Shown piece after piece: positions 48,637-64,000 of a stretch of DNA of 64,000 nt (position 1 is the first letter of the stretch; every line of letters begins with the position of its first letter). This DNA comes from an uncultured Planctomycetota bacterium. GTDB taxonomy: Bacteria > Planctomycetota > Planctomycetia > Isosphaerales > Isosphaeraceae. Both the position numbers and the translations under genes were made by a program. The stretch is from contig CAWJTV010000011.1 of NCBI GenBank assembly GCA_963845755.1, positions 32,001 through 96,000 of the forward strand, written 5' to 3'. The notes beneath the pieces are model-generated. The model was not told where the DNA came from, did no database searches, and saw only the letters and a list, made by a program, of their open reading frames with translations.

Positions 48637-51293
48637 TCATGGCACGAACGGCGTGTGCGGCACCCGGGCGTGGCAGGTCGTCCCGGCGTGGAAACGCCTG
48701 GCATGAGGACCGCGACCGTAGAAGATGTGAGGGCGCCGGGGTCCCTCGAGCGCCGGCGCCTTGTGGCCCAAACGCTTCTGGAGCGGTCGCCGGACTCGAT
48801 AGGCGACGGCCGAAGTCAGGATCACTCCGAGAGGGATCGTGAGGTCGGCTTCGATCAGGTGTGATCGGTGTTTTCGACGGCGTGCGGGGACCGGGACTTC
48901 GGACTGGGCGAGGATTTCCGAGGACTCCGGCGTCCTGGGGCTGTGGTCTGCATCGGACACCCCGCCGAGCCAGGAGGAGATGGGCCCGCTCGGGAACCAG
49001 TTGACCAGGGAGAGCAGCCGGTCAACCCGCGCCAGGACCCGCGCATCTTCGCCGGCGCCGACCGTCTCGGGTTTGGCCGTCACAGCCAGGACGGCCGCCT
49101 CTTGCGGGACGGCCGGTTGACCTTCGGCGGAGCCGAGATTTTCGGGCGGATCGCCATTGCCGAGTCGCCACTCGGAGTCCGACGCCGACGTGTAGCGGAT
49201 TCCCGGCATCAACCCGTTCAATCGATCCGCCACGGAAGCCAGCGCCCCCTCGACCGTCGGGCCGACCGCGGCGACCTGCTGGGCATCCGCCCCCGGCAGC
49301 CCCATCAGGCCCGTGTCCATCGAGACCAGCAGCAAGCTGGAGGGGACGGGAGACGCGACGAGTGCTGTCACACTCGATGCCGCGCTGCCGCCGGAAATCA
49401 CCGCATTCGTCACCCCATCGGCTGCTCCCAGGCCCGATGTCGCGGTCGGGTCCGCCGAGAGCGAGCCGACCAGCGACAAGCTCAGCGCGGGTGCCTGGCC
49501 GACGCCGTTCTCGATGATCTTCTCGTAATCGAGTGCCAGCGGCTTGAGGGTCCATTGAACCACGGCGGGTTGAGACCCGACGGCGGTCACCCGCACGTCG
49601 TAGACCCCGGGCTGGAGTGCCATCTCGGAGTGGGTCAGTCCCGACAGGTTGTCCATGGTGAGGGCGGTCGTCCCGCCTGGCCCCGTGACTTCGAGATCGG
49701 CCTCGCCTGCGCCCACGAGGGTCTGGATCCCGTAAGTACCGGGGCAGATCACCACGAAGCGGTAGGCGGTTTCCTGGCCGGCGGCGAGCAGGGTGGTCCG
49801 CGAGATCGACGAGTCCCAGGTCACGTTGATCGGGCCGGGCCAGACGACGCCCAGATTGTCGGGGCGCTCGCTCCGGTGGGTGCGATGGTCCAGGTCGCCA
49901 GGACGCCCGACGGATTGCCCGACGGAGCGACCAGCGGTAGGCCGGAGGAATCGGTCAAGCCGCCTTGGACCGGATCGACCAACCGGTACGTCCCCGCCGG
50001 CAGGGGTTCGTCGAAGATGAACCCAAGTGCGTTCGTGGCGAATTGATCGCTCACGGCCGTGATGGGCCAGACCTGGCCCGAGGCGTTGACCACTTCGAGG
50101 GCGGTCTCTTGCTGGTCGGGAAGGAATAGAGGGGTCGCGTTGACCGGGCCGGAGAAGGTCAGGTCCAGTCCCGTCGGGGACGGTTCGAGGGAATCCGCGT
50201 ACTCCAGGGTGTGGCCCACCAGGGTGGTGGTGCTGACGGCCGGATCGGCGAACAACTGGAGGAGGAACCGGCCGCTGGGGCCTTCGAAACCCGCGATGCC
50301 CGGCGTCCCCGTCACGGGGTTGTAGCCGTTGAGCCATCCGGTCAGGTTCTTGGCGGCGGAGACCCCGACGTAATACGTTCCCGGCGCCAGGCCCTCGATG
50401 AGGAAGGGATCGGAGCGGTTGGTCGCCGAACCCGCGCCGGAGGTGTTTTCGGCCAGCACATCCCCCTTGGCGTCGAAGAGGGTCAGGCCGGCTGTCAAGG
50501 GGCTGCCGATGGCCTGCGACAAGAGCTGCGCATTCAATTGCCAGCGGTTCCCCGACGGCAGCGTGAACTGATAGAGGCTTACCGACGACGACGCGTTCTG
50601 GGGATCGACGAAGCCCGAAACGCTCCGCGTCGTCGGGCCGATGTTCCCCAACTTGATCGCGCCTCCCAGCGTCACTCCGGGGCCCAGGATCGTGAACTGG
50701 GCGATCGGCACCGGCTGGCTCCCCGCCCAGGCCGATGCCGGGTAGAACGAACCGAACACGGAAGCCAGCACAGTCCCCGGCAGGATGTCGAGCTGGTAAG
50801 TCCCCGGCCCCAGCCCCAGGTTCCCTGCCGAAGGCGAGATGCTGACCTGGGCCTGGGAGACGGTCCCATCGGCAGCCGTCTGGATGGTGACGTTCTCCTG
50901 CAGCGGCGACGAGGTGTTGCTGCCCAGCACGGGCGACCCCACGCCGCCGGGGCCGACCTGGTCGAGCTCCACCTCGGCGTTGTCACCCTGGCTGACATTG
51001 TCGAACGCGACGAGTGCGGGAAAGGTCTGACCTGGTTCGGTACCGAGTAAGCCCGAGAAGACATTGTCGATCGTGGTGACGTCACCCGGGTCGAAGGTGA
51101 TCGCCAACTGCTGAGGCGCCTGAAGCAGGACCGTCCCATCGGCCGGCTGAATCGCATCGATCCCGGGTAGGGAGACCGAGAGGAGATGCCGGCTCTCCAG
51201 GAGTTCCAGGGCGGGCCGACGACTCGCTGGCCGCTGGGAGCGGGTTCGGAGATGATACGACTTCCCATCAAGCAGGTTCATCGGGATATCCAC
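48637..51293 (-). CDS. Large secreted LESR-motif protein with PPC-like domains, frameshift near 49830
   Basis: LELLESRHLLS; LTLFDAKGDVLA...DPFL..GLAPGTYYVGVS. Confidence 0.75.
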
Positions 51294-51311
51294 GACTTCG
51301 GTGATGCCCTG

Positions 51312-52832
51312 TCACCGGTGGTGTCTTCGGGGCGTCGAATGCCGCTGGTGGTGGCCGTGCCAATCCTCCAGGACGGCATCCACCGCCTGGAAGACGACCA
51401 CCACGTCCGGCATGCCGGCGGTCGAGCTGGGCTGCTGCCCCGTCTTGGAATTGCTCTGCGGAGTCATCGCGGTCGTCTCCGCGTCCTGCGTCGTGAAGCT
51501 GGGCAAAGCGCCGATTGATCCGCCACCATGGCCGGTGGGCGGGTTCGGCTGCGCAGGTGGCACGGTGGTCTTCCCCGCGACCGCGCCGCTATTCATCTGG
51601 AAAGCCCAGCCCGAGATATTGCCGATCGTGATCCAAATGGGCTGCTGCGGGATGAGGGGAGACTCGCCGGCACCGATGGCGTTCATGCTTGCCTCAATGG
51701 CGTTCTGGGTGGTGCCGCCGCTGTTGTCCGGCTGTTCAGGCACCACCGTGTTCGGCGGCGAGATCGGCGACTGGGACTGCGAGCCGAAATTGACCAGCAA
51801 GCCGTAGGCTCCAACGGTACCCACCGTGCCCGAGCTCGCCGCCGTGACCCTGATGTAATACTTCTGCCCGGCCTGAACGTTAATCGTCGTCGAGGGCGCC
51901 GCCCCGTAGACGCCCGTCGCGTAGACTTGGGAGATCTGGCTCAGCGACGAGTTGTAGACGGTCAGCCCGGGTGCCAGCGAGCTCAGGTTGGACGACTGCG
52001 CGGTGATCGCCATCTTTCCGGTCGTCGAGGAGGGGACTGTGACAACGTACCACTCCGCATCACCGGCGGTGGTATTGTCCAGGGCCGAGAGCGAGATCTG
52101 GGACTGACCGTTGATATAGGACGTGATATTGGTCGCGGTCAGAAACGTGCTGTTCCGCGTGCCGTGGTTATTGAACTGGTCGTACTGGTGCGCGCCATAA
52201 ACGGAATCGATACCGCTAACGTCGTCGCTGCTCAGGGTCTGATTGATCCCCTCGTAGGTGCCGTACATCACGGCCCATTGGACGCTCGAGTCGCCCAGGC
52301 CCAGGGCGTGGCCGAACTCATGCGCCGCCACGGTCATCAGGTCATACGTGTTGTTGATCGCCCAGGTCGCCGTCGAGTTGAACAGGATATCACCGGCAGC
52401 CGTGCCGCCATTGGCCTGCGGGGGCAGGAAGGTTTCGGCGAGGACGCCGGACGGCAACGGGATGGCGCCGATGCGGATGTCGCCGAACCGCGGGTCGTCT
52501 TGCTGATCGCCGCTGATGCCGTCCGCTTCTCCGCCATCCGGAACCAGGGACAGGTTGACATTGGCAGCCGTCTCCCAGATCGACGCCGCCTGTTCGATCT
52601 GAGTTTGCCAGGTCGCCGTGGAAGCCACCTTGTTGAGGGTCTGGAACAGAACGCTGGGCGTTCCGCCCACGCTGGTCCCATCGGGCATGAAGCTGTAGGT
52701 GATCCGGCTGTCGTAGGTCCACATGTCGCCGAGGGTCGAGTAGAGCAGCAGCCGACTCTCCAGATGTTCCGGGGCAGGGCGGGCGTTGCGAGACGGTGTC
52801 CACCGAGCGGAGGTGCGTCGAAGTCCCAGCAT
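51312..52832 (-). CDS. Matrixin-family (M10-like) metalloprotease, secreted
   Basis: LESRLLL; GDIRIG, AGDILFN, AAHEFGHALGLGDS, Met-turn AVMY. Confidence 0.9.
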   Translation of the reverse strand: MLGLRRTSARWTPSRNARPAPEHLESRLLLYSTLGDMWTYDSRITYSFMPDGTSVGGTPSVLFQTLNKVASTATWQTQIEQAASIWETAANVNLSLVPDGGEADGISGDQQDDPRFGDIRIGAIPLPSGVLAETFLPPQANGGTAAGDILFNSTATWAINNTYDLMTVAAHEFGHALGLGDSSVQWAVMYGTYEGINQTLSSDDVSGIDSVYGAHQYDQFNNHGTRNSTFLTATNITSYINGQSQISLSALDNTTAGDAEWYVVTVPSSTTGKMAITAQSSNLSSLAPGLTVYNSSLSQISQVYATGVYGAAPSTTINVQAGQKYYIRVTAASSGTVGTVGAYGLLVNFGSQSQSPISPPNTVVPEQPDNSGGTTQNAIEASMNAIGAGESPLIPQQPIWITIGNISGWAFQMNSGAVAGKTTVPPAQPNPPTGHGGGSIGALPSFTTQDAETTAMTPQSNSKTGQQPSSTAGMPDVVVVFQAVDAVLEDWHGHHQRHSTPRRHHR

Positions 52833-53212
52833 CGTAATACTCCGTTGCAAATCAGGGAGATTTCGCAGGGGATAGACTCAGACGGCGGAGGATCGATTTC
52901 GTCGCGCGGCTGAAGGCCAACGCCTCATCCGGCTAGGGAAGCTCAGGATCATCGCGGCTTCGTGATCCTCCACCGAACACAGTAGACGCACCTCCACTGC
53001 AACACTAGGTCAGGTTGGGAGATGCTGCCAAGAAAAGACGTGTTAGCCCGGTGGTCAGGCAAATTTGAGGGAGGGGCGTTGCGATCGAGCCACAAGTGCT
53101 GCCAAAAAAGGACATGAAATCGGTCGAACCTGGAGCTTCATCGGCTCAGAAAAGCCACTTCCGTCGCCCGGCGAGATCCGCGGCCGCGGAGCCGGTCGGA
53201 CCCGATGGGCCG

Positions 53213-53995
53213 TCAAACCGCGGCGCGGGTCGCCCGCTTCCGCCGCCAGATCATGGCGGCAGCCGCCAGGCCCCAGAAGGTCCAGGTCGTGGGCTCCGGG
53301 GTCGCCATCGGAACAACCATCTGCGGCGCCGACTGGATGATCTGATCGAAGCCGCTCGGAAGAATCGCCGCGCGCAGGGCGGCGGCGGCGGCCGGGCTGA
53401 ACGTCGAGTTCGGGCTGATCATCATGGCCCAGTTGGCCCTCGTCGAATCGATATAGTTGCCGGACTGGTCGTAATTCTCCCCGACGCCGAAGGCGAGCAT
53501 CAACTCGTGGGCGATATTGTGCGCGACAAGCCATTCGAGCTGATCGACCGATTGGGCCGATTGGGCCATCGGATCGATGAAGCTGAACCCGTTGCCGCCG
53601 ATGGCGGTTGTCCCAATAGCGCCGGGAAAGGCCAGGCTCGAGGTGTTCGAGACCTCGCTGAGCACATGGGCGGTTGGGATGCCGGGATTGTCTGTCAGAG
53701 CGACTGCAATTCCGCTGAGGCTGAAGGTCTGCTCGACACGCTGGAGGACCGTGCCGTCGAAACTCTGCTGTTGCTGCGCGGTGGGAGGGCCGCCGAAGAG
53801 GCCGGCGACGGCTGTGCTGTCGAACCAGGGCTGTGCGTTACCGGTTGTGATCTGGCTCTGGTCGGGATACGGGCTGGATCCCAGGTTGATGAAGGCGTCA
53901 ACGGGGGCGGACGAAATGAGCGGATCGGCGCCGGCCGTTCGCACCGCGGCGATCGACAGGATGATACCCAGAACGAGGATCCTCCAACCAGCCAT
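53213..53995 (-). CDS. PEP-CTERM sorting-signal protein
   Basis: Signal peptide; C-terminal TPEPTTWTFWGLAAAAMIWRRKR. Confidence 0.85.
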   Translation of the reverse strand: MAGWRILVLGIILSIAAVRTAGADPLISSAPVDAFINLGSSPYPDQSQITTGNAQPWFDSTAVAGLFGGPPTAQQQQSFDGTVLQRVEQTFSLSGIAVALTDNPGIPTAHVLSEVSNTSSLAFPGAIGTTAIGGNGFSFIDPMAQSAQSVDQLEWLVAHNIAHELMLAFGVGENYDQSGNYIDSTRANWAMMISPNSTFSPAAAAALRAAILPSGFDQIIQSAPQMVVPMATPEPTTWTFWGLAAAAMIWRRKRATRAAV

Positions 53996-54566
53996 CGCGA
54001 ACCTCCTGTTCGAACCCCTGGGGACTGCCGTTATAACGATCCTGCCGCATTCCCTCTTTGGATGGGACGCCAAGGTTTTCGACCGGCGCGGAGACTATGT
54101 AGCCAGCGGCCGGCTTCCGCTCGGGTCGAATCCCACTGATCTGAAGGGAAGGGAAGAGCCGACGAAATCGAAGGGATGCCTCCCCAGTTAGCAAACTTCA
54201 TGCCGAGATCAAGTCCTCACCGAATGACCGATGCTTCAGCGGGAGAAGATTGTCGAAACTACCGATTCGGCCGGCTGTTCGGTTTTTTCGCCCGGGAACC
54301 TCGGGGTGCCGCCCCGGACCGGTCCGGGGCGCGCGAATGTTCCACAACCTGGTGCTTTTTACAAACCCTTGGATATCTTGGGAGAGAACGAGCAGACTCA
54401 CGTCCACGGCGTGGGGGGCCGGTACCGATCAGCCTGCCACCGGACAAAAGCGATCTCCGGCGGAACTTTTTCCCCGGCAGCGGCACCTTGAGAGAGGATC
54501 GGTGTTGGTCCATGCCACTTCCTCGACGATTCTGGTACGGGGTTCTGGGAAGTTGGAAGTTGGGTC

Positions 54567-54596
54567 TTGATCATCGTCGGATCCGTCGATTATAGT
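54567..54596 (+). promoter_or_regulatory. Putative sigma-70 promoter TTGATC-N18-TATAGT
   Basis: Near-consensus hexamers about 45 nt upstream of ATG 54640. Confidence 0.5.
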
Positions 54597-54639
54597 GATC
54601 CCTGTATTTGTGACGGTCGTTGATTGGACCAAGGTTGGG

Positions 54640-55002
54640 ATGACCATGCCGCGGTTCGTTCGACAATTCCTGTTCGCCTCACTGGTCGCTTGGCACGCCG
54701 CGGTCATGCTCTGCGGCCCATACCTGCACGAGCTGGCCGGTTCCGGGCACGGCAACGGCGCGGTCTCGTCGAAGGAACAGCGTCCCGACGGCCCCGCGCA
54801 ATCCAACCGCGACGTCACGGACGGCTGCCTCATCTGCCATTTCGTCGCGCAGGGGCAATTGCCGGTCACCTTCTCCGACGGCCCGTCGATCCAGCAGATC
54901 GACGCCCTGACAGTCCCCCCACTCCCAGTCGCACGACCCCTCTCGAACCGGCTCCCAGCCGGCCCTCGCGCTCCGCCAGGGGCGGCCTCCAACCTGTCCT
55001 GA
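54640..55002 (+). CDS. DUF2946-like leader protein with CxxC and RAPP motifs
   Basis: Hydrophobic N-terminus, CLICH (54826-54840), Pro-rich tail GPRAPP (54961-54978). Confidence 0.8.
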   Translation: MTMPRFVRQFLFASLVAWHAAVMLCGPYLHELAGSGHGNGAVSSKEQRPDGPAQSNRDVTDGCLICHFVAQGQLPVTFSDGPSIQQIDALTVPPLPVARPLSNRLPAGPRAPPGAASNLS

Positions 55003-55392
55003 CCGGCGTGAGAGCGCGGTCCTTACAGACCGGCCGCCGGCTGGCGTGCGCCACCCTACCTACCGCGAGCTCCCCGATCGAGCCCCGGCATGGGGCCGCG
55101 CACTCGCCCCGACCGATCGCCTCCGGCGCAACGGCGCCGCGGACCGACCGGCCCGCCGATCCCTGGTCAACGGATCGTTAACGCACGGTCCGGTCGCCGA
55201 TCCGGCCCGGCTGATCCCGGCCGGATCGGCTGCACGTGCAATCACCCCTGCGCGTGAGTCGACACGATCCCACCAAGACGGAGCGGCAGCTCGTGGCCCC
55301 GCGCGGTCCGCGACCGTTGATAACGGCCATATCCGGCAAAAATTGACATTGGAATTTGTCCTGATCCGATTCTCATCTCCGAGGAGTTCCCT

Positions 55393-56497
55393 ATGCGTAA
55401 TGATCGTTCGCGGACCGCAAGACCAGGCTTCACGCTCATCGAGCTCCTGGTCGTGATCGCAATCATCGCGGTCCTGATTGCCCTGCTCCTGCCCGCGGTT
55501 CAGGCCGCTCGCGAAGCCGCTCGCCGGGCCCAGTGCGTCAACAACCTGAAGCAGATCGGCCTGGCGCTGCACAACTATCACGACGCCATCAGCACCTTTC
55601 CTTCCGGCTACATCGATTACCAAAACAACTCCATCTATACTCCCGACCTGGACATGGGACCGGGCTGGGGCTGGGCGGCCCTCGCGCTGCCGTTCCTGGA
55701 ACAGCAGCCCCTGTACAACGCGATCAATTTCAACCTGGGCATACGAAGCGCAAGCAACAGCACGGCCGTGCTGACGCCGTTGACCGTCTTCCAGTGTCCT
55801 ACGGATGGTTACAACCCGCAGCCCTGCATCCTCTACGACAGCACGTTCAGCAACCCCATCATCACGGTGGCGCACTCCAACTACGTCGCTGGCAGCGGCT
55901 GGGAGGAATGCTTTGTGAACGCCACCGGGAACCCCACACCATTCTACCTCAACACCAGCGACCCCAACGATCAAGACGGAGACCCCACGGACGGCATCCC
56001 TGGCAATGGCATTACCTGTGGGTATGGCGCGGCCGGCATCGGCATGTTTTCGCGCAGACAGTAACACGCGCAACGCCTCCGTCATTGACGGACTGAGCAA
56101 CACAATCGCCGTCGGCGAGCGCTGCACCGCCCACTCCCCAACCACCTGGGTCGGCGCCGTGACGGGAGCAAGATGCCCCGCGTGGATGGCTACCATCGGC
56201 TGGACAACCCCCAATACTCCTCCCTCCCAGTGCCAGAATACCGGAAATGGCACCGCCTACGACAATGCGGACTTCGACGAAGCCTTGTGCCTCGGCCATG
56301 GCAACGCCACGCACAAGCCCAACAGCGACAACCCGGTCTTCGACCCCGATACGTTTTGGGCCATGCACCCCGGTGGATGCAATTTCCTGTTCGGCGACGG
56401 CTCGGTGCATTTCCTCAAGGTCAGCATGAACCCGGGCGCGTATCAATACCTGATGACCAGAGCCGGCGGCGAGATCATCTCGGGAGATTCCTATTGA
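55393..56497 (+). CDS. DUF1559 prepilin-type protein, frameshift near 56055
   Basis: [59 protein letters not shown]. Confidence 0.95.
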
Positions 56498-56581
56498 TGG
56501 CCGCGGTCCGCGCGCCTCAAACCGGTGGGCGCTGGCCATTCGCCTGGTTCTTCGCCCCGATTCCGAGGGAGGACTTGACTT

Positions 56582-57019
56582 ATGCGCGTGCAGACAGGTC
56601 TGGTTCTGTTGCTTGGCTTGCTGGCGTGCGCCGGCTGCAACAATGGGAAATCGACCGACGAGTTGATCGCGGATCTGAAGTCGGGCACAGAGATAGAGGG
56701 CGTTAAAGCGGCGCGCACCTTGCCGCGGGGAAGGGGCGATGCGGAAAAGGTCGTTCCGGCGTTGATCGAAGGCCTCACGCATAGGGCCAACGATGTCCGC
56801 CGCAGCTCCGCCCTCAAACTTGGCGAGTTTCACGAACTCGCCAAGGATGCCATCCCCGCGCTCCAGAAGGCGGAGCAGGACGACGCTGACGCCAGGGTCC
56901 GCGAAGCAGCCGGCATCGCCTTGTCGCGCATCGATCCGGAACGATTTCCCTACAAGCTCAAGGTCGGACTTCCCAACACGTCCAAGGGACGGCCGGCGGG
57001 AGCTTCGAGAAGACGCTGA
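56582..57019 (+). CDS. HEAT-repeat lipoprotein
   Basis: Lipobox LLACAGC; VVPALIEGL, AIPALQKA, VREAAGIAL. Confidence 0.82.
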   Translation: MRVQTGLVLLLGLLACAGCNNGKSTDELIADLKSGTEIEGVKAARTLPRGRGDAEKVVPALIEGLTHRANDVRRSSALKLGEFHELAKDAIPALQKAEQDDADARVREAAGIALSRIDPERFPYKLKVGLPNTSKGRPAGASRRR

Positions 57020-57309
57020 TTCGAAGGCCGTCGGTGCCGGCGCGCAGCCTCATCCTGACCACGGGACTGGAAGCTTTTCTCGTATGTGAAACGTGCTCGC
57101 TGATCTTTCAGTTGGCGGGCATGGCTTGTCGGTTGGAGACGGTGCTCTGCCGTGTTTTCTGGCGGATCCCCGGCTGAGCCGGCCATCCTGGGCCGGATCC
57201 CTTGTGTTGTGAACGTCGAACCCCGGGCCGGGACGCGTTCGCGGTGCGGACATCCCGCGCGCGCGCTCGGCCCTCATCTACCACAGCCCATTACTACGGA
57301 GACGCAACG

Positions 57310-57771
57310 ATGAACCGTCGCGAGATTCTCGGTGTCGCTGGGGCCAGCTTAGCGGGAGTCGCGCTCGGGGCGACCGAGTCCCGAGCCCAGCATCCCCACC
57401 ATCACGACAAGCTGCATGGCGATTGCCTCAAGGCCTGCGAGGCGTGCGCCACCGTCTGCAACGAGACGTTCCATCACTGCTTCGAGAAGGTCAAGGATGG
57501 TCACGGTGACCATCACGTCGTCACCATCCTGACCATCGACTGCCAGGAGTTCTGCGGCCTGGCGTCGGAGCTCATCGCCCGGGAAAGTCCGATGGTCTCG
57601 GTCATCTGCGCGGCCTGTGCCGACGCTTGCAAGATGTGCGCGGCGGAGTGTTCCAAGCACGATGACCCGCAGATGAAGGAGTGCACCGCCGCCTGCAAGG
57701 CCTGTGAGACCGCGTGTCGCGCCATGGCCAAGGCGGCCGGCGAAGCCAAACCCGAAGTCTTAGACCGCTAA
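57310..57771 (+). CDS. Tat-exported Cys-rich four-helix-bundle copper-storage-like protein (Csp1 type)
   Basis: MNRREIL twin-arginine signal; 16 Cys in CxxxC/CxxC spacing; HPHHH. Confidence 0.88.
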   Translation: MNRREILGVAGASLAGVALGATESRAQHPHHHDKLHGDCLKACEACATVCNETFHHCFEKVKDGHGDHHVVTILTIDCQEFCGLASELIARESPMVSVICAACADACKMCAAECSKHDDPQMKECTAACKACETACRAMAKAAGEAKPEVLDR

Positions 57772-57834: not shown

Positions 57835-59128
57835 ATGAACCCGCTTGCCTGGCTGACGAACCGGGGGGACGTCCTCACGCGGGACGTCCTTCCGGCCCTG
57901 GCGCCGTATATTCGCTGGCTGAGAACCCCGCTCGGCTCGCTCACCCTGGCGGCACTCGCCGCGGGCCTATGCGGGATGTTTCTGCACCCGCAAGGGTTCG
58001 TGGTGTTCTTCGGTGTCCTGGCGGTGATGACCCTGGGCCTGGCCTGGCCCTGGCTGGGCGTCCGCGGGCTGGAGGGCTTGCTGAGCTTCGACCGCCTCCG
58101 CTGCCGCGAGGGGGAATCGGTCCAGGCGAAACTGACCCTCCGCAACCGGATGTTCTGGAGTGCCTGTGGGATCGCGATCAAGGGAGGGTTCCACGCGCCA
58201 TCGGGTGAGCGTGGCGATGAGACCGCGCTGGTTGGCCTGGCGTCGGTGCCTCCCCGGCGCACAATCGTGAAAATGTTCGAGTTCGTCCCTCAAATCCGCG
58301 GCGAGTATCCCATCCGCCGGCCTCGGGTGGTCTGCGGCTTCCCGTTCGGCCTGAGGGAGGCATCGCGGCCGCTGGATGTCGCCGAGTCGCTGCTGGTCTG
58401 GCCCCGGACTTTCCCCGTCCCGATGATGCCCGAGACCGCCGGCGCCCGGGCGTCCGACGGCCTGGCCACCCGCGACCGCGCGGGCCAGTGGGGCGATCCG
58501 CTGGGCGTCCGGCCTTACCGCCGCGGCGATCCGCTCCGTCGCGTCCACTGGGTCCTGACCGCGCGGCACGGAGAGTTGATCGTCCGCGAGCTCCAATCGA
58601 ACGCCGTCCCTCGCGTCCAGATCGTGCTCGATGCCCACCCGGCCGCGCACCGCGGGTCGGGGCCGGACAGCTCGCGCGAGTGGGGCATCCGCATCGCCGC
58701 GAGCCTGGCCGAGGGTTGGATCCGCGAAGGAGCCGACGTCGAGATGGTCGTCGACCGGGGCCTGGTCCCGGCATGCGGCGGTTCGAAGCGGGCCCGCTCG
58801 GCGACCTTGCTCGACGCCCTGGCGCGATTGGCCCCGGCGTGTGACCGAACCCTCGAGGAATTGCTCCGCCTCCCCGAATGCCGTGGCGACGGCGGATTGC
58901 GGGTCATCGTCACGACGGACATCGCGGCTGCGCGACGACAGTGGACAAGAAGCCCGGCGACGGCCCAGAGATGCCTGGGTCGTGCTCCAGGCCGCGGCGT
59001 TCGGATCCGACGAGACCTCCGCTCCGACTGAACCCTTGCCGGTGGCTCCCTGGATCCGGATCGGTGGCCCGGAGCACGTGGCGGCATGTCTCCACCGGCC
59101 GGGAAAGGAGATTCTGCTTGGTGCCTGA
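57835..59128 (+). CDS. DUF58 protein, frameshift near 58935
   Basis: FPFGL, LLVWP, GVRPYRRGDPLRRVHW..TARHGELIVRE. Confidence 0.9.
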
Positions 59129-61473
59129 TCGTCGTGAAGAGGTGCGGGTCTGCTGGACGACCCAGGCCATGGCGGGACTCGCCGCCATTGCGCTGGACCA
59201 AGCCGTGCTGGAGCCGGGCCGGTCGCGTGCCGTCGCCTTGACGTGGACGGTCGCCGCGCTCGTCGCGCCGATGCTGGCCGCGGGCTGGTGGCTGGGAAGG
59301 GCTCGGAGGACCCGGTCGGGCTCCTTCCCGATCGTCGCCCTCCTGATCGTGTTCGCTCTCCCATTCGTCGGCGAGGCGGTTCGGTTCGCCGTCAGCGGCC
59401 GCGGGGCGATGGCGGAGGTCCTCTTGATGGCCGCCTTGCGAAACCTGGGGCTCGGCCTGGCCGCGATGGCCCACCGGCTGTTCTATGCGCGACTGTCGGC
59501 CGTCGTCAGCCTGTTCCTGGTGACTGTGGCCTCGTCGGTCGGCGGCGACGCCGGACTGGCCGTCCTGGGGCCGATCGGCGGATTCGCCATGGTGGGGACG
59601 CTCTGGTTGATGCTCGTCTACTGGAACGGCCTGGCCCTGGAGTCGGGCGCGGGACCAGCGTCGCGGCGGCTCCCGCTGTCGGGCGCGGCCTGGGTGCTGG
59701 GGATCCTTGGGATGCTCGCCGCGGTCGCGGCGGTCGGGCCTTCGCGCGCGGCCACCGCGCTGGCGGGCCTGCTGCCCACCTCGGGCGGCACGGACTGGAG
59801 CGACCCCGATGCCCGATCGGGGGTCGGCGACGGCGACCACGAGGTCAGCGCCAGCGAGCACCCCGAATCGGTCGGGTTCACCGAAAGCGAGGTCTACCTG
59901 GAAACCGACCGGCCCAGCCTCTACGACGCGTTCAACGAGACGTACGGCGAGCCGTTCAAGCCCAAGAAGCAAGAGAAGATGATCGCCCTGGGACAGCAGG
60001 ACATCGGCCCGCAGGAGGAGCGACCGGCCGAGAACCTCCAGGCCGGTCGCGAGTTCGCCGCAGTGCGGCGGAAACCCCAACCGCATCCCCGACGGCCCGG
60101 TGAGCGGGCGGCCAAGGCGTTGGTTTACGTCAAGGGCCCGACTCCGCTGCACCTGCCCTTGACGTCGTACAGCCACTTCGACGGCACGGCCTGGCACGAG
60201 GAGCCCTGCTGCAACCGGCATCTCCCCGTCGAGCCGGAACCCCACGGTTCGTGGTTGAGACTGCCGTGGTCGGAGGCGCCATTCCTGGCCGGGATCGTCG
60301 CTCACCAGGTCAAGATCGGAACGCTCGAATCGAGCCCGATGCCGGTACCGCCGCACCTGACCCGGTTTCGTGTCGGCAGTGTCAACCGGCTCGACTTCTT
60401 CGGCTGGGCCCAGTTCGGAATCATCCGGATGACCGACCGGACCGTGCCGGCGGGGACCGTGATCGACTCCGAAGCGCGGACGGTCGACCCCCAGGAGCTG
60501 AAGTCGATCCCGTTCCGGCCGCGGCTGGACAATGAGGACGACCACAACCTCTCGTTCCAGGGAGATTATCGGATCGACCCGTCGGTGGCCGCGCTGGCGA
60601 GGAGTTGGGTTGTGGACCGACCCGAAGGCTGGTCACAGATTGAGGTCGTCATCGCCGCGCTTCGGAGTGGCTACGGTCACGATCGTTCGGCCACGGCTCC
60701 GTCCGGCTGCACCGACGTCGTCGCCGAGTTCTTGCTGCGCTCCCATCGCGGCCCCGATTACCTGTTCGCCTCGGCGGCGGCCGTGATCCTGCGGTCGCTG
60801 GGTTACCCGACGCGGGTCGTCAGTGGTTTATATGCGGCGCCGGGACGATATGACCCCCGTACGCGCCACACACCGGTGACCCGCGACGACGTCCACTTCT
60901 GGGCCGAGATCCGGCTGTGGAACGGCATCTGGGTCGCCATCGAGCCCACCCCTGGCTACGAGCTGTTGCGCCCGGTTCGCCCCTGGTCCGAGCAGATTGT
61001 CCAGGCGGCTCTGGGCCGCCGGGAGATGGGCACAAGGTCACGCCGCCGGCCTTCTGGCCGCGGTAGTCGGCTTCGGGGCGCTTGTGATCCGGCGACACGA
61101 CGTGCTCGATCGGCTCGCAACCCTCGGGCTGGCCCTGCGCATGGGACACGACCCGAGGCGGTACGTGATGTATGCGTTGAAGTTGATCGAGCGACGGTCG
61201 CGGCGGGCCGGCCGCGCGCGACCGCCGGGACTCACCCTCGGCCGCTGGTATTTCCCCCTCGCGTGGGAAGCGACGGGAGAGGACCGAACCGCGCTGGAAG
61301 GGCTCGTCCGGCTGGCCGACTGGGCGACCCACGCTCCCGACCGCTCAGGCCTGCCCGCACCCGCAAGCGCGCACGACATCCAGCAAACCTGCCGGTCCGC
61401 AGTGCGGGTGTGGACACAGGCTCGCTTCCGCCATGCCATGACTTCCCGGCTCGGAAAGGCGGCCATCTCATGA
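59121..61473 (+). CDS. Membrane transglutaminase-like protein, frameshift near 61020
   Basis: Multiple TM helices; GPDYLFASAAAVILRSLGYPTRVVSG, HFWAEI, WVAIEPTPG. Confidence 0.85.
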
Positions 61474-62447
61474 GGACGATGACGACCATGACGGTCCTGA
61501 TGAACGAGACCCATGCTGACCCGATCGAGAGGATCCGCGCCGCGCTCAACGGTGCACTGCGCGGCAAGGCCGATGTGGTAGAGCATGTGCTCGCCTGCCT
61601 GCTGGCGCGGGGGCACTTGCTCGTCGAGGATCTGCCGGGCCTGGGCAAGACGACGCTGGCCAAGGCCCTCGCGCTGGCGCTGGGCGGCAAGTTTGCGCGG
61701 GTCCAATGTACCCCGGACCTCCTGCCCGGCGACATCACCGGGTTCCGCGTGTTCGACCAGCACACCCGCGAGTTCGAATTCCTGCCGGGTCCGGTCTTCG
61801 CCGACGTGCTCCTGGCCGACGAGATCAATCGCGCGACCCCGCGCACCCAGAGTGCCCTCCTCGAAGCCATGGCCGAGCGACAGGTCACCGTGGACAACGT
61901 CAGGCACGTGCTGTCGGACACGTTCTTCGTGATCGCTACCCAGAATCCGGTCGAGCAGCATGGGACATACCCGTTGCCCGAGGCCCAGCTCGACCGATTC
62001 GCCGTGAAGCTGCGGATCGGCTACCCGGGACGCGATCACGAGCTGGCCATGCTGGAAGCGGCGGTTGGCCGAGGGATAGACGGAGACCGGTCCGTGGCTC
62101 CCGTGATGGACCCGGGCCAACTCCGAGCGCTTCAGGAACGTGTGGCGGAGATCGCCGTCGGCGCGGCGGTTCGCGAGTACATCGTCGCTCTGGCCCATGC
62201 TACCCGGACGCATCGGCAGGTCACCCTCGGACTGAGCCCGCGCGGATTGTTGATCTGGCAGCGACTGGCGCAGGCCCGCGCGTTCCTCGACAGCCGGAGC
62301 TACGTGACACCGGACGACGTCCAGGACGTCGCCGAACCCGTGCTGGGGGTCCGCCTCGGCGTCGAGCCCGACGCGATCGCTCGGATCCACTCCGAGATCA
62401 CGGCGTCTGTTCCGGTCCCCGTTTATGTCAAGACTGGTCCCGAGTGA
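61470..62447 (+). CDS. MoxR family AAA+ ATPase
   Basis: HLLVEDLPGLGKT, TPDLLPGDITG, LADEINRATPRTQSALLEAM, YPLPEAQLDRF. Confidence 0.95.
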   Translation: MRTMTTMTVLMNETHADPIERIRAALNGALRGKADVVEHVLACLLARGHLLVEDLPGLGKTTLAKALALALGGKFARVQCTPDLLPGDITGFRVFDQHTREFEFLPGPVFADVLLADEINRATPRTQSALLEAMAERQVTVDNVRHVLSDTFFVIATQNPVEQHGTYPLPEAQLDRFAVKLRIGYPGRDHELAMLEAAVGRGIDGDRSVAPVMDPGQLRALQERVAEIAVGAAVREYIVALAHATRTHRQVTLGLSPRGLLIWQRLAQARAFLDSRSYVTPDDVQDVAEPVLGVRLGVEPDAIARIHSEITASVPVPVYVKTGPE

Positions 62448-62495
62448 GGCGGCTCTCGTGTGGCCCAACCCCTGAACTCAGAAAAAGGGCATTGC

Positions 62496-63002
62496 ATGAA
62501 GACATCATCCTGGTTATCCACGCCCGCGTATCGGGCGACTCTCGCGGCCGCCTGCCTGCTCGCACTTGCGGGTTGTCGAGGCGAGTCGTCCCCCGGCGAT
62601 GACGAAGACCACGTCGGCCACGTCATCCCCGCGCACAAGCCGAGGACGTTTCCGGAGGCCGTCCATCGCCTGCGTGAGCTGAACGATCAGATCGGCCGCG
62701 AGATCGGCGGAGGAGCATCTGCGGCGGCGTCCGGGGATAAGACCCTACACATCGCGCTGGACATCGCCAACTGGCTCCCCGAGATCGCCGCGGATTGTGA
62801 CATGCCCGAGACCCCCTGGAACGTGGTGAACACTCGGTCGGAGGTGCTGGCCGCGGACTACCAGGCCATCCTTTCCAACCCGGCGACGGCCGGCGCGGCC
62901 AACGAGTTGAAAAACACGGGAAAGGCGATCGCCGACCTCGAGGCCCTGCTGGCCGCCGCCGACCTCCGTTGGTTTGCCGGAACTCATCAGAAGCGAGGGT
63001 AA
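62496..63002 (+). CDS. Lipoprotein with His/acidic motif
   Basis: Lipobox LAGC; DDEDHVGHVIPAHKP; WLPEIAADCDMPE. Confidence 0.75.
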   Translation: MKTSSWLSTPAYRATLAAACLLALAGCRGESSPGDDEDHVGHVIPAHKPRTFPEAVHRLRELNDQIGREIGGGASAAASGDKTLHIALDIANWLPEIAADCDMPETPWNVVNTRSEVLAADYQAILSNPATAGAANELKNTGKAIADLEALLAAADLRWFAGTHQKRG

Positions 63003-63006
63003 CGTC

Positions 63007-64000
63007 ATGTTCGAGACCATCTTCTGGGGCGCGGTGCTCCGCGTTTCCCAGGCATTCATGCAGGCAGCTCCGACGATCCTGGTGGGGATCGTCGTGGCGG
63101 CGATCTTCCGGCGGCTGCTCGGGCACGGGGGGACCCGACGGCTCTTCGGCACCGGGACCCGGCGCGAGCTGCCGCAGGCGTGGCTCGTCGGGATGTTGAT
63201 GCCGATCTGCTCGCTGGGTGTAATCCCGGTCGCCCAGGAGATGCGGCGGGCGCGGGTCTCCGGGGGTGCGATCCTGGCATTCGCCATGACCGCTCCGCTG
63301 TTCAACCCGTTATCGATGCTCTACGGCCTCACGCTCTCGGCGCCGTGGGTCATCCTGTCGTTCGCATTCTGCACGATGCTGGTGGTGACGGCTGTGGGCG
63401 CGGCGTGGAACGGGCTCTTCCCGATGGCCGCATCGGAGGAACCGGCCCCGTCGCCGGTCGCCTATGGCGTGAAGCGAATGATCGCGATCGTCGTGGCCGC
63501 TGCGCGCGCGATCGTCGGCCCGTTTCTGGTTTACGCGGTGCTGGCTCTGCTGGGCGTGGCACTACTCGCCGCCTTGGTGCCGCACGGCAGCCTCATGACG
63601 ACCATGGAGCACAGCAACCCTTACGCCCCGCTGGCGATGACTGCGGTGGCGATCCCCGCGTATGCCACGCCATTGATGGCCATGTCGCAGCTCGGCTCGA
63701 TGTTCCAGCACGCCAACTCGGTCGGGGCGGCGTTTGTCCTATTGACCCTGGGCGCGGGAATCAATCTCGGGTTCATCGCCTGGGTCGGGCGGACCTACGG
63801 ACTGAAGCGCGGCCTGGCCTGGCTGGCTATCCTGGTGGCCGTGGTGCTCTCCCTGGCCTACGCGATCGAGAAGCCGCTCTATCCCAGCGAGATCCAGCCG
63901 GCCGGCCATACCCACGCCTTCGACATCTATTGTTGCCCGTTCGTTTCCGGTACGAGCCATTTGCCGGGGACCGTCCTGGCGAAACTCAAGGAAGACCTCC
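63007..64000 (+). CDS. DUF318/ArsP-type permease (partial, runs off the window)
   Basis: MFETIFWG...MLMPICSLGVIPV...AILAFAMTAPLFNP; later HTHAFDIYCCP; absent from the ORF track. Confidence 0.82.
   Translation, partial: MFETIFWGAVLRVSQAFMQAAPTILVGIVVAAIFRRLLGHGGTRRLFGTGTRRELPQAWLVGMLMPICSLGVIPVAQEMRRARVSGGAILAFAMTAPLFNPLSMLYGLTLSAPWVILSFAFCTMLVVTAVGAAWNGLFPMAASEEPAPSPVAYGVKRMIAIVVAAARAIVGPFLVYAVLALLGVALLAALVPHGSLMTTMEHSNPYAPLAMTAVAIPAYATPLMAMSQLGSMFQHANSVGAAFVLLTLGAGINLGFIAWVGRTYGLKRGLAWLAILVAVVLSLAYAIEKPLYPSEIQPAGHTHAFDIYCCPFVSGTSHLPGTVLAKLKEDL

Follow-up and report, generated by a model that had tools for sequence, protein, structure and literature searches.

The leader ORF and its surroundings

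The window (the whole stretch of 64,000 nucleotides that was analyzed) contains a short upstream ORF (uORF), hereafter called the leader, that resembles the DUF2946 family and lies ahead of a DUF1559 prepilin-type gene, a likely copper storage protein (Csp), and several further genes on the same strand (Table 1). On the minus strand, positions 49821-54073 divergently encode a PEP-CTERM-like protein, a matrixin (M10) protease, and a PPC protein with a CopC-like match; a PEP-CTERM gene stands upstream of the leader in several related loci too.

Table 1. Positions of the leader, its sequence elements, and the downstream genes in the window.
Feature	Position	Strand	Basis or remark
Sigma-70-like promoter, TTGATC-18-TATAGT	54567..54596	+	Homolog form TTGAC-16/18-yAnACT
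DUF2946 (CruR/CutF-like) uORF	54640..55002	+	120 aa; translated from sequence, Pfam, conservation
Hydrophobic signal-like or membrane helix	54640..54726	+	Hydropathy and predicted helix
His30 codon, GPxLH motif	54727..54729	+	Invariant: 82/82 rows, 40/40 homologs
CxxC (C63, C66)	54826..54837	+	Invariant in 40/40 homologs
C-rich, G-poor stretch; candidate Rho-loading (rut) site	54907..54996	+	C32/G11 in 54907-54966
RAPP arrest motif	54967..54978	+	43 residues after C66; putative arrest site
Spacer, 390 nt	55003..55392	+	Between leader stop and DUF1559 gene
Shine-Dalgarno sequence (SD) GAGGAG of DUF1559 gene	55381..55386	+	Within 23-bp stem, 55303-55325 with 55396-55418
DUF1559 prepilin-type gene, H-X9-DG C-terminus	55393..56497	+	Split by +1 base near 56057
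HEAT-repeat putative lipoprotein	56582..57019	+	Pfam
Tat-type four-helix-bundle copper storage protein (Csp)	57310..57771	+	TIGR04401 E 2e-12, below cut-off; PDB Csp matches to E 2e-12
DUF58 gene	57835..59128	+	Frameshift near 58948
Transglutaminase-domain gene and MoxR AAA gene	59211..62447	+	Fused in assembly by frameshift near 61004-61117
His-containing putative lipoprotein, then ArsP_1/SO_0444-like permease	62493..64000	+	Permease 514 aa, extends beyond window

An earlier note on this DNA had described the leader as a 120-residue ORF with a signal-like N-terminus, a central CxxC, a Pro-rich linker, and an RAPP motif seven residues before the stop, and all of these elements were confirmed. 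The motifs read C63LIC66H and R110APP on either side of the linker, and the last seven residues are followed by TGA. The N-terminal region has a 19-residue hydropathy peak of 1.57 and a predicted helix at residues 3-27 of a 118-residue form, which starts at ATG 54646. This is probably the conserved start, Met being found there in 68 of 82 aligned rows. A longer form starting at GTG 54595 was dropped because this codon overlaps the -10 element of the promoter-like site at 54567-54596, which also favors ATG 54646. A second CxxC (C25-GP-C28) is common in close homologs and carries the substitution C28Y here (window 54721-54723).

The leader is not a chance ORF, since only four of the 163,049 stop-to-stop frames of the 14.3-Mb genome contain the strict pattern CxxC-x40-48-R[AG]PP near a stop, and the leader frame alone among these four matches the family profile. 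Compared with 12 close homologs, dN/dS is 0.15 in the region of RAPP, 0.16 across the CxxC block, and 0.52 in the linker; the low values at the two motifs indicate that the leader is under purifying selection at the level of the protein sequence. The AlphaFold model of the leader is mostly unstructured and lacks a compact fold (pTM 0.31), and therefore gives no metal-site geometry.

Conservation of the leader family

The Pfam model PF11162 (DUF2946) matches the leader across almost the full model with 21-22.2 bits (E 3e-4 to 6e-4), just under the gathering score of 23.7 bits. Among the leader homologs, 65 of 82 match DUF2946 at E<0.1, the best at 4e-6. Four other weak matches to DUF2946 in the same genome were inspected, and none was convincing.

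A protein search yielded 47 homologs among 65 candidates. In an alignment of 40 sequences (the query and 39 others), no variation is seen at H30, H37, C63, or C66, and at least 90% retain RAPP. The named loci belong to Isosphaeraceae or other planctomycete genomes; profile searches detected homologs in 87 of 121 genomes of Isosphaeraceae, the family from which the window comes, and in 13 of 401 genomes across the phylum, where the profile loses sensitivity and misses divergent members. For counting, 106 distinct uORF loci were pooled from several searches and from 60 regions picked among family-profile matches, after removal of one reverse-strand false match; these loci are related and not independent, and kinship inflates the homolog counts. 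The distance from the second Cys to RAPP is 43 residues in 94 of the 106 loci and 42-47 in six, and could not be parsed in the other six, two of which are doubtful. The distance from His to Cys, unlike this spacing, ranges from 18 to 51. His30 is a possible third metal ligand.

Three loci (L095, with uORFs ending at 844 and 1526; L152, at 845 and 1514; and L103) have two divergent CxxC-43-RAPP uORFs in tandem on the same strand ahead of the same operon, which are possibly two sensors in series.

Putative promoter and transcription unit

The sigma-70-like pattern of the site at 54567-54596, fixed only after the upstream regions had been viewed, occurs upstream of 42 of 92 leader homologs (2.4 expected) and of 14 of 51 non-redundant loci (1.4 expected). 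The CruR-like architecture that the earlier note had recognized is supported, as are the fixed CxxC-RAPP spacing and the first position of the leader behind this conserved site. That note had also named a separate promoter of the DUF1559 gene, marked by TTGACA at 55343-55348, as a finding that would speak against control by the leader. This hexamer lies inside the spacer without a matching -10 element, and TTGACA occurs in three of 51 homolog spacers, with 2.0 expected by chance; the promoter-like pattern was found in none of the 51 spacers (1.0 expected). An internal promoter was rejected on these grounds, and the leader and the operon would share one upstream promoter.

The spacer and its history

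The spacer is, as first described, GC-rich (68.7%, versus 64.4% for the genome) and has inverted repeats, seven pairs of which lie within 54900-55450. Folding of 55003-55392, which the earlier note had proposed as a check, showed a stability modestly better than that of shuffled sequences (z -2.5, or -3.0 with flanks), but only two of ten homolog spacers reach z <= -2. Searches of 54000-57400 with Rfam covariance models gave no matches at E<=1, and no intrinsic terminator was found in the spacer. Spacer sequences can be aligned among close kin only. A conserved RNA structure was rejected on the basis of the folding of the homologs and this narrow sequence sharing, and the comparison indicates that no conserved RNA switch is formed by the inverted repeats.

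Spacers that precede DUF1559 genes have a median length of 331 nt (range 93-473, n=51). Positions 55004-55299 align with the region between the uORF and an ECF sigma factor gene in locus L068, with a score of 98.5 (shuffled sequences, 32 ± 4, maximum 46), and weakly with loci L002 and L003, and the last ~35 nt of the spacer align with the gap that separates the ECF and DUF1559 genes in L002 and L003. As the two ends of the spacer match both gaps flanking the ECF gene, an ECF sigma gene was likely lost from the spacer by deletion. The assembly contains no close ortholog of this gene (best matches 33-48% identity, mostly partial). The junction is spanned by related contigs in three other runs and is thus not an assembly artifact.

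Genes downstream of the leader

The gene directly after the leader varies. At the 106 loci, it encodes DUF1559 in 54 cases, an ECF sigma factor in 26, DUF58 in seven, Csp in five, an ABC ATPase in two, MerC in one, an unnamed protein in one, and other proteins in six, while four loci were too short. The earlier note had taken the DUF1559 gene as the cis-acting target; it is indeed the most frequent first gene, but the leader heads a multigene operon, and elsewhere other genes come first. Across the loci compared, the leader appears as the constant part, and the cargo genes are interchangeable.

The loci at which an ECF sigma gene comes first include L002, L003, L068, L113, L115, L117, and L119, and the sigma factor of L002 scores over the cut-off of TIGR02937. 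The arrest peptide may gate the sigma factor at such loci. The module of DUF58, transglutaminase, MoxR, lipoprotein, and permease genes (window 57835-64000) recurs under leaders, DUF58 being present in 29 of 80 long loci. Csp orthologs with at least 67% identity lie 0.25-3 kb downstream of a leader uORF in 19 of 22 cases, and a Csp was seen in only 17 of the 80 long loci. The likeness of the permease to the SO_0444 efflux protein rests on a profile score below the cut-off.

Some paralogous leaders head other operons. In L125 (1009-5980, minus strand), the leader is followed by genes for a His/Cys lipoprotein, a permease of the ArsP type, and a COG0523-like P-loop GTPase that contains CICC and is of a type linked to zinc starvation; this suggests zinc rather than copper for L125. 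Two Singulisphaera leaders (L028 and L029), with a spacing of 45, precede genes for an ABC ATPase, an FtsX permease, and DUF3299, an operon that resembles the Vibrio zrgBCD zinc uptake genes. The gene content suggests that the paralogs heading MerC, ABC-DUF3299, and GTPase operons respond to other metals.

In the DUF1559 gene of the window, an extra base near 56057, overlooked in an earlier reading, breaks the reading frame; it is missing from all eight related contigs covering the site. The DUF58 gene (near 58948) and the transglutaminase gene (near 61004-61117) are likewise shifted, and the assembly has 98 prepilin-type ORFs, of which 22 fall below 260 residues. These frameshifts are probably assembly errors, strain-level decay being a possible alternative. 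The genome has 163 matches to the DUF1559 profile, split pieces included.

The DUF1559 clade to which this gene belongs has nine His/Cys residues (H149, C156, C161, C197, C232, H235, C287, H290, and H295) that are present in 75-100% of the 16 clade members examined and in no more than 4% of 75 paralogs from the same genome. The predicted structure of an intact ortholog has a pLDDT of 64, with values below 50 in the His/Cys-rich parts. A Foldseek search with this model gave no match at E<=0.001, the weak matches being to pilins only (best Z 4.6, rmsd 3.7, 113 residues aligned). The uORF-linked DUF1559 proteins do not form one clade (eight label changes, at least four of them forced, in a FastTree phylogeny). 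One could speculate that the leader-linked clade is a metal-handling, pilin-like surface protein that forms, with the HEAT lipoprotein and the Tat-type Csp, a module for copper capture and storage, placed where Proteobacteria put a TonB receptor, and that the leader perhaps combines a copper-induced stall with an output through Rho, gating an ECF sigma factor in about a quarter of the loci. We consider this unlikely as a whole; if true, the large DUF1559 family would gain its first function tied to a ligand.

A proposed model for control by the leader

The 3' part of the leader is C-rich and G-poor, with C exceeding G from -60 to +30 nt around the Arg codon of RAPP in 94 of 94 loci. The G deficit goes beyond what the amino-acid content dictates: the synonymous deficit averages -3.05 per 72 nt, and 41 of 51 non-redundant loci lie below expectation, compared with means of -0.86 (4,641 gene ends) and -1.31 (274 Pro-rich gene ends), although the distributions overlap and 20% of gene ends reach -2.9. 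The window has a deficit of -6.4, which is equaled by 1.5% of gene ends. The stretch is predicted to be less paired on average (0.47-0.52 unpaired versus 0.35-0.41 elsewhere); in the window, -25..0 is predicted to be paired (0.28 unpaired). It lies where the rut site of CruR was mapped (PMC9426467), which fits a CruR-type attenuator, and the genome encodes Rho. Alternatively, the G deficit could reflect selection for slow codons (CCT, GCT, and CCA) rather than a rut site. The genome also has two EF-P genes scoring over the cut-off.

Starting from the observed anatomy and conservation of the leader, the promoter-like site, the operon content, the excess of C over G, and the presence of Rho, we propose that the leader acts as a CruR-type attenuator. 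A single upstream promoter would transcribe the leader and the operon, and the ribosome would stall at RAPP by default. Positioned just 3' of the C-rich stretch, the stalled ribosome would bar Rho from the RNA polymerase in the long spacer, and the operon would be read. Metal, most likely copper, would bind the CxxC of the nascent chain, perhaps together with His30, at 43 residues from the peptidyl center and pull on the chain; the stall would then be released, and Rho would terminate transcription within the spacer. We give this complete scheme, with metal as an off-switch, about an even chance of being correct. Its parts differ in strength: that the leader exerts cis-acting control by arrest is highly probable, that the output runs through Rho is fairly likely, copper is likewise the likelier metal, and the off direction is favored only slightly.

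The direction is the point at which a second scheme, to which we assign a modest probability, departs from this model. Here, copper bound outside the membrane would induce or prolong the stall, as in CutF, and the resulting protection from Rho would turn the storage and efflux operon on. The Tat-type Csp and the SO_0444-like permease downstream fit this opposite direction, Csps being mostly upregulated by high copper (PMC7558416). The conserved N-terminal hydrophobic helix and the invariant His30 also speak for this scheme; the CutF stall is triggered by copper and requires the signal peptide. Against it, the leader has a CxxC and RAPP with CruR-like fixed spacing, whereas CutF has CxxxC and PPP, and the RAPP of CruR arrests translation in vitro without ligand (PMC12992588). 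Arrest in the ligand-free state fits metal-off logic. The same holds for the paralogs heading the starvation-type ABC-DUF3299 and permease-GTPase operons; in one of these paralogs, the permease precedes a GTPase of the zinc-starvation type.

These paralogs also bear on the identity of the signal. With the same arrest mechanism, the leader could sense zinc (or nickel or cobalt), or export or disulfide status, instead of copper. His30, His37, Cys63, Cys66, and His67 could form a Cys2His2-type site, DUF2946 genes appear in a table of the Caulobacter Zur regulon, and CutF-like proteins are stated not all to be copper-specific. However, in the clade of the leader itself, the linked metal gene is Csp, and we regard a signal other than copper as rather improbable here.

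Still less probable is translational control of the CutF/SecM type, in which the stall would remodel the spacer RNA and free the SD of the DUF1559 gene. A 23-bp stem does enclose the SD and the start codon (p 0.78), leaving the SD ~0.2 unpaired, and the SDs of linked DUF1559 genes show slightly more pairing (median 0.14, n=37) than those of genome controls (0.22, n=73; p 0.007, with no correction for kinship). The SD lies ~400 nt from the stall site, however, and when the ribosome footprint was forced to be single-stranded, its unpaired fraction was still 0.20; the folding model thus predicts that a stalled ribosome would not open it. Even the shortest of the 51 spacers (93 nt) places no SD within reach of a stalled ribosome. 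Spacers share neither sequence nor length beyond close kin, and the first gene is interchangeable, a variation that fits control at the level of transcription. Rho attenuation is favored over SD melting because of the G-poor, C-rich stretch, the Rho gene, and a 390-nt spacer that exceeds the reach of the ribosome.

That the leader is an ordinary secreted metal-binding peptide next to a gene with its own TTGACA promoter is very improbable: the signal-like N-terminus and the hexamer are there, but RAPP and its exact spacing are kept while the linker drifts, the hexamer occurs at chance level, and the predicted protein is mostly unstructured.

Comparison with known systems

The leader resembles CruR (Bp2923), a DUF2946 uORF of Bordetella pertussis (Roy et al. 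2022, PMC9426467), in its export-like N-terminus, a CxxC set at a constant distance from the C-terminal RAPP, its place at the head of the operon, long GC-rich spacer, excess of C over G at the 3' end of the uORF, and copper-related genes downstream. The Cys-to-RAPP spacing of CruR is 45, conserved within 1-2 residues (PMC9426467), and the spacing of 43 in the leader falls within this range. The tail after RAPP comprises three residues in CruR and seven in the leader, the spacers measure 162 and 390 nt, respectively, and the invariant His of GPxLH sets the leader family apart. CruR targets a TonB receptor, whereas the leaders precede DUF1559, ECF sigma, Csp, DUF58-transglutaminase-MoxR, and permease genes. 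Roy et al. mention a few planctomycete homologs, and CruR Table S1 contains two other planctomycetes (PMC9426467).

CutF of Rhodobacter capsulatus (Ozturk et al. 2023, PMC9973294; bioRxiv 10.1101/2025.02.05.636593) belongs to the same family, shares the Cys motif, Pro-rich end, and putative signal, and acts in cis on a copper gene. It differs in its motifs and in melting a nearby SD stem-loop, unlike the distant SD at the present locus, which the modeled footprint leaves unaffected. [quoted passage not shown] In contrast to these monitors, the leader has a conserved metal motif and no sec or yidC gene downstream in its operon, and 96 of the 106 first genes fall in families other than sec/yidC.

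The pairing of RAPP uORFs with DUF1559 was tabulated by Fujiwara et al. (2025, PMC12992588, Fig. 4B source data), with 112 RAPP versus 68 AAPP cases, a 6.5-fold enrichment, and an adjusted p of 1e-31; DUF1559 is one of 30 downstream groups in that table. Many uORFs among the source-data entries listed contain His/CxxC and RAPP, the motif strings of the present clade are absent among those entries, and the section of the article text covered here does not discuss the DUF1559 group. In the literature on DUF2946/CruR, RAPP arrest, and DUF1559, we found no experimental study of such leaders in planctomycetes, and full supplements may list the clade.

The class of mechanism is known and the DUF1559 pairing has been tabulated; the leader adds a member to the CruR/CutF family. 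It defines a regulon across Isosphaeraceae, composed of promoter, leader, and interchangeable cargo genes, and singles out, in a large family whose function is unknown (PMC10632474, PMC4807772), one DUF1559 clade that may be metal-regulated. With this leader, one could test cleanly if CruR-type leaders are able to turn storage genes on, besides turning uptake genes off.
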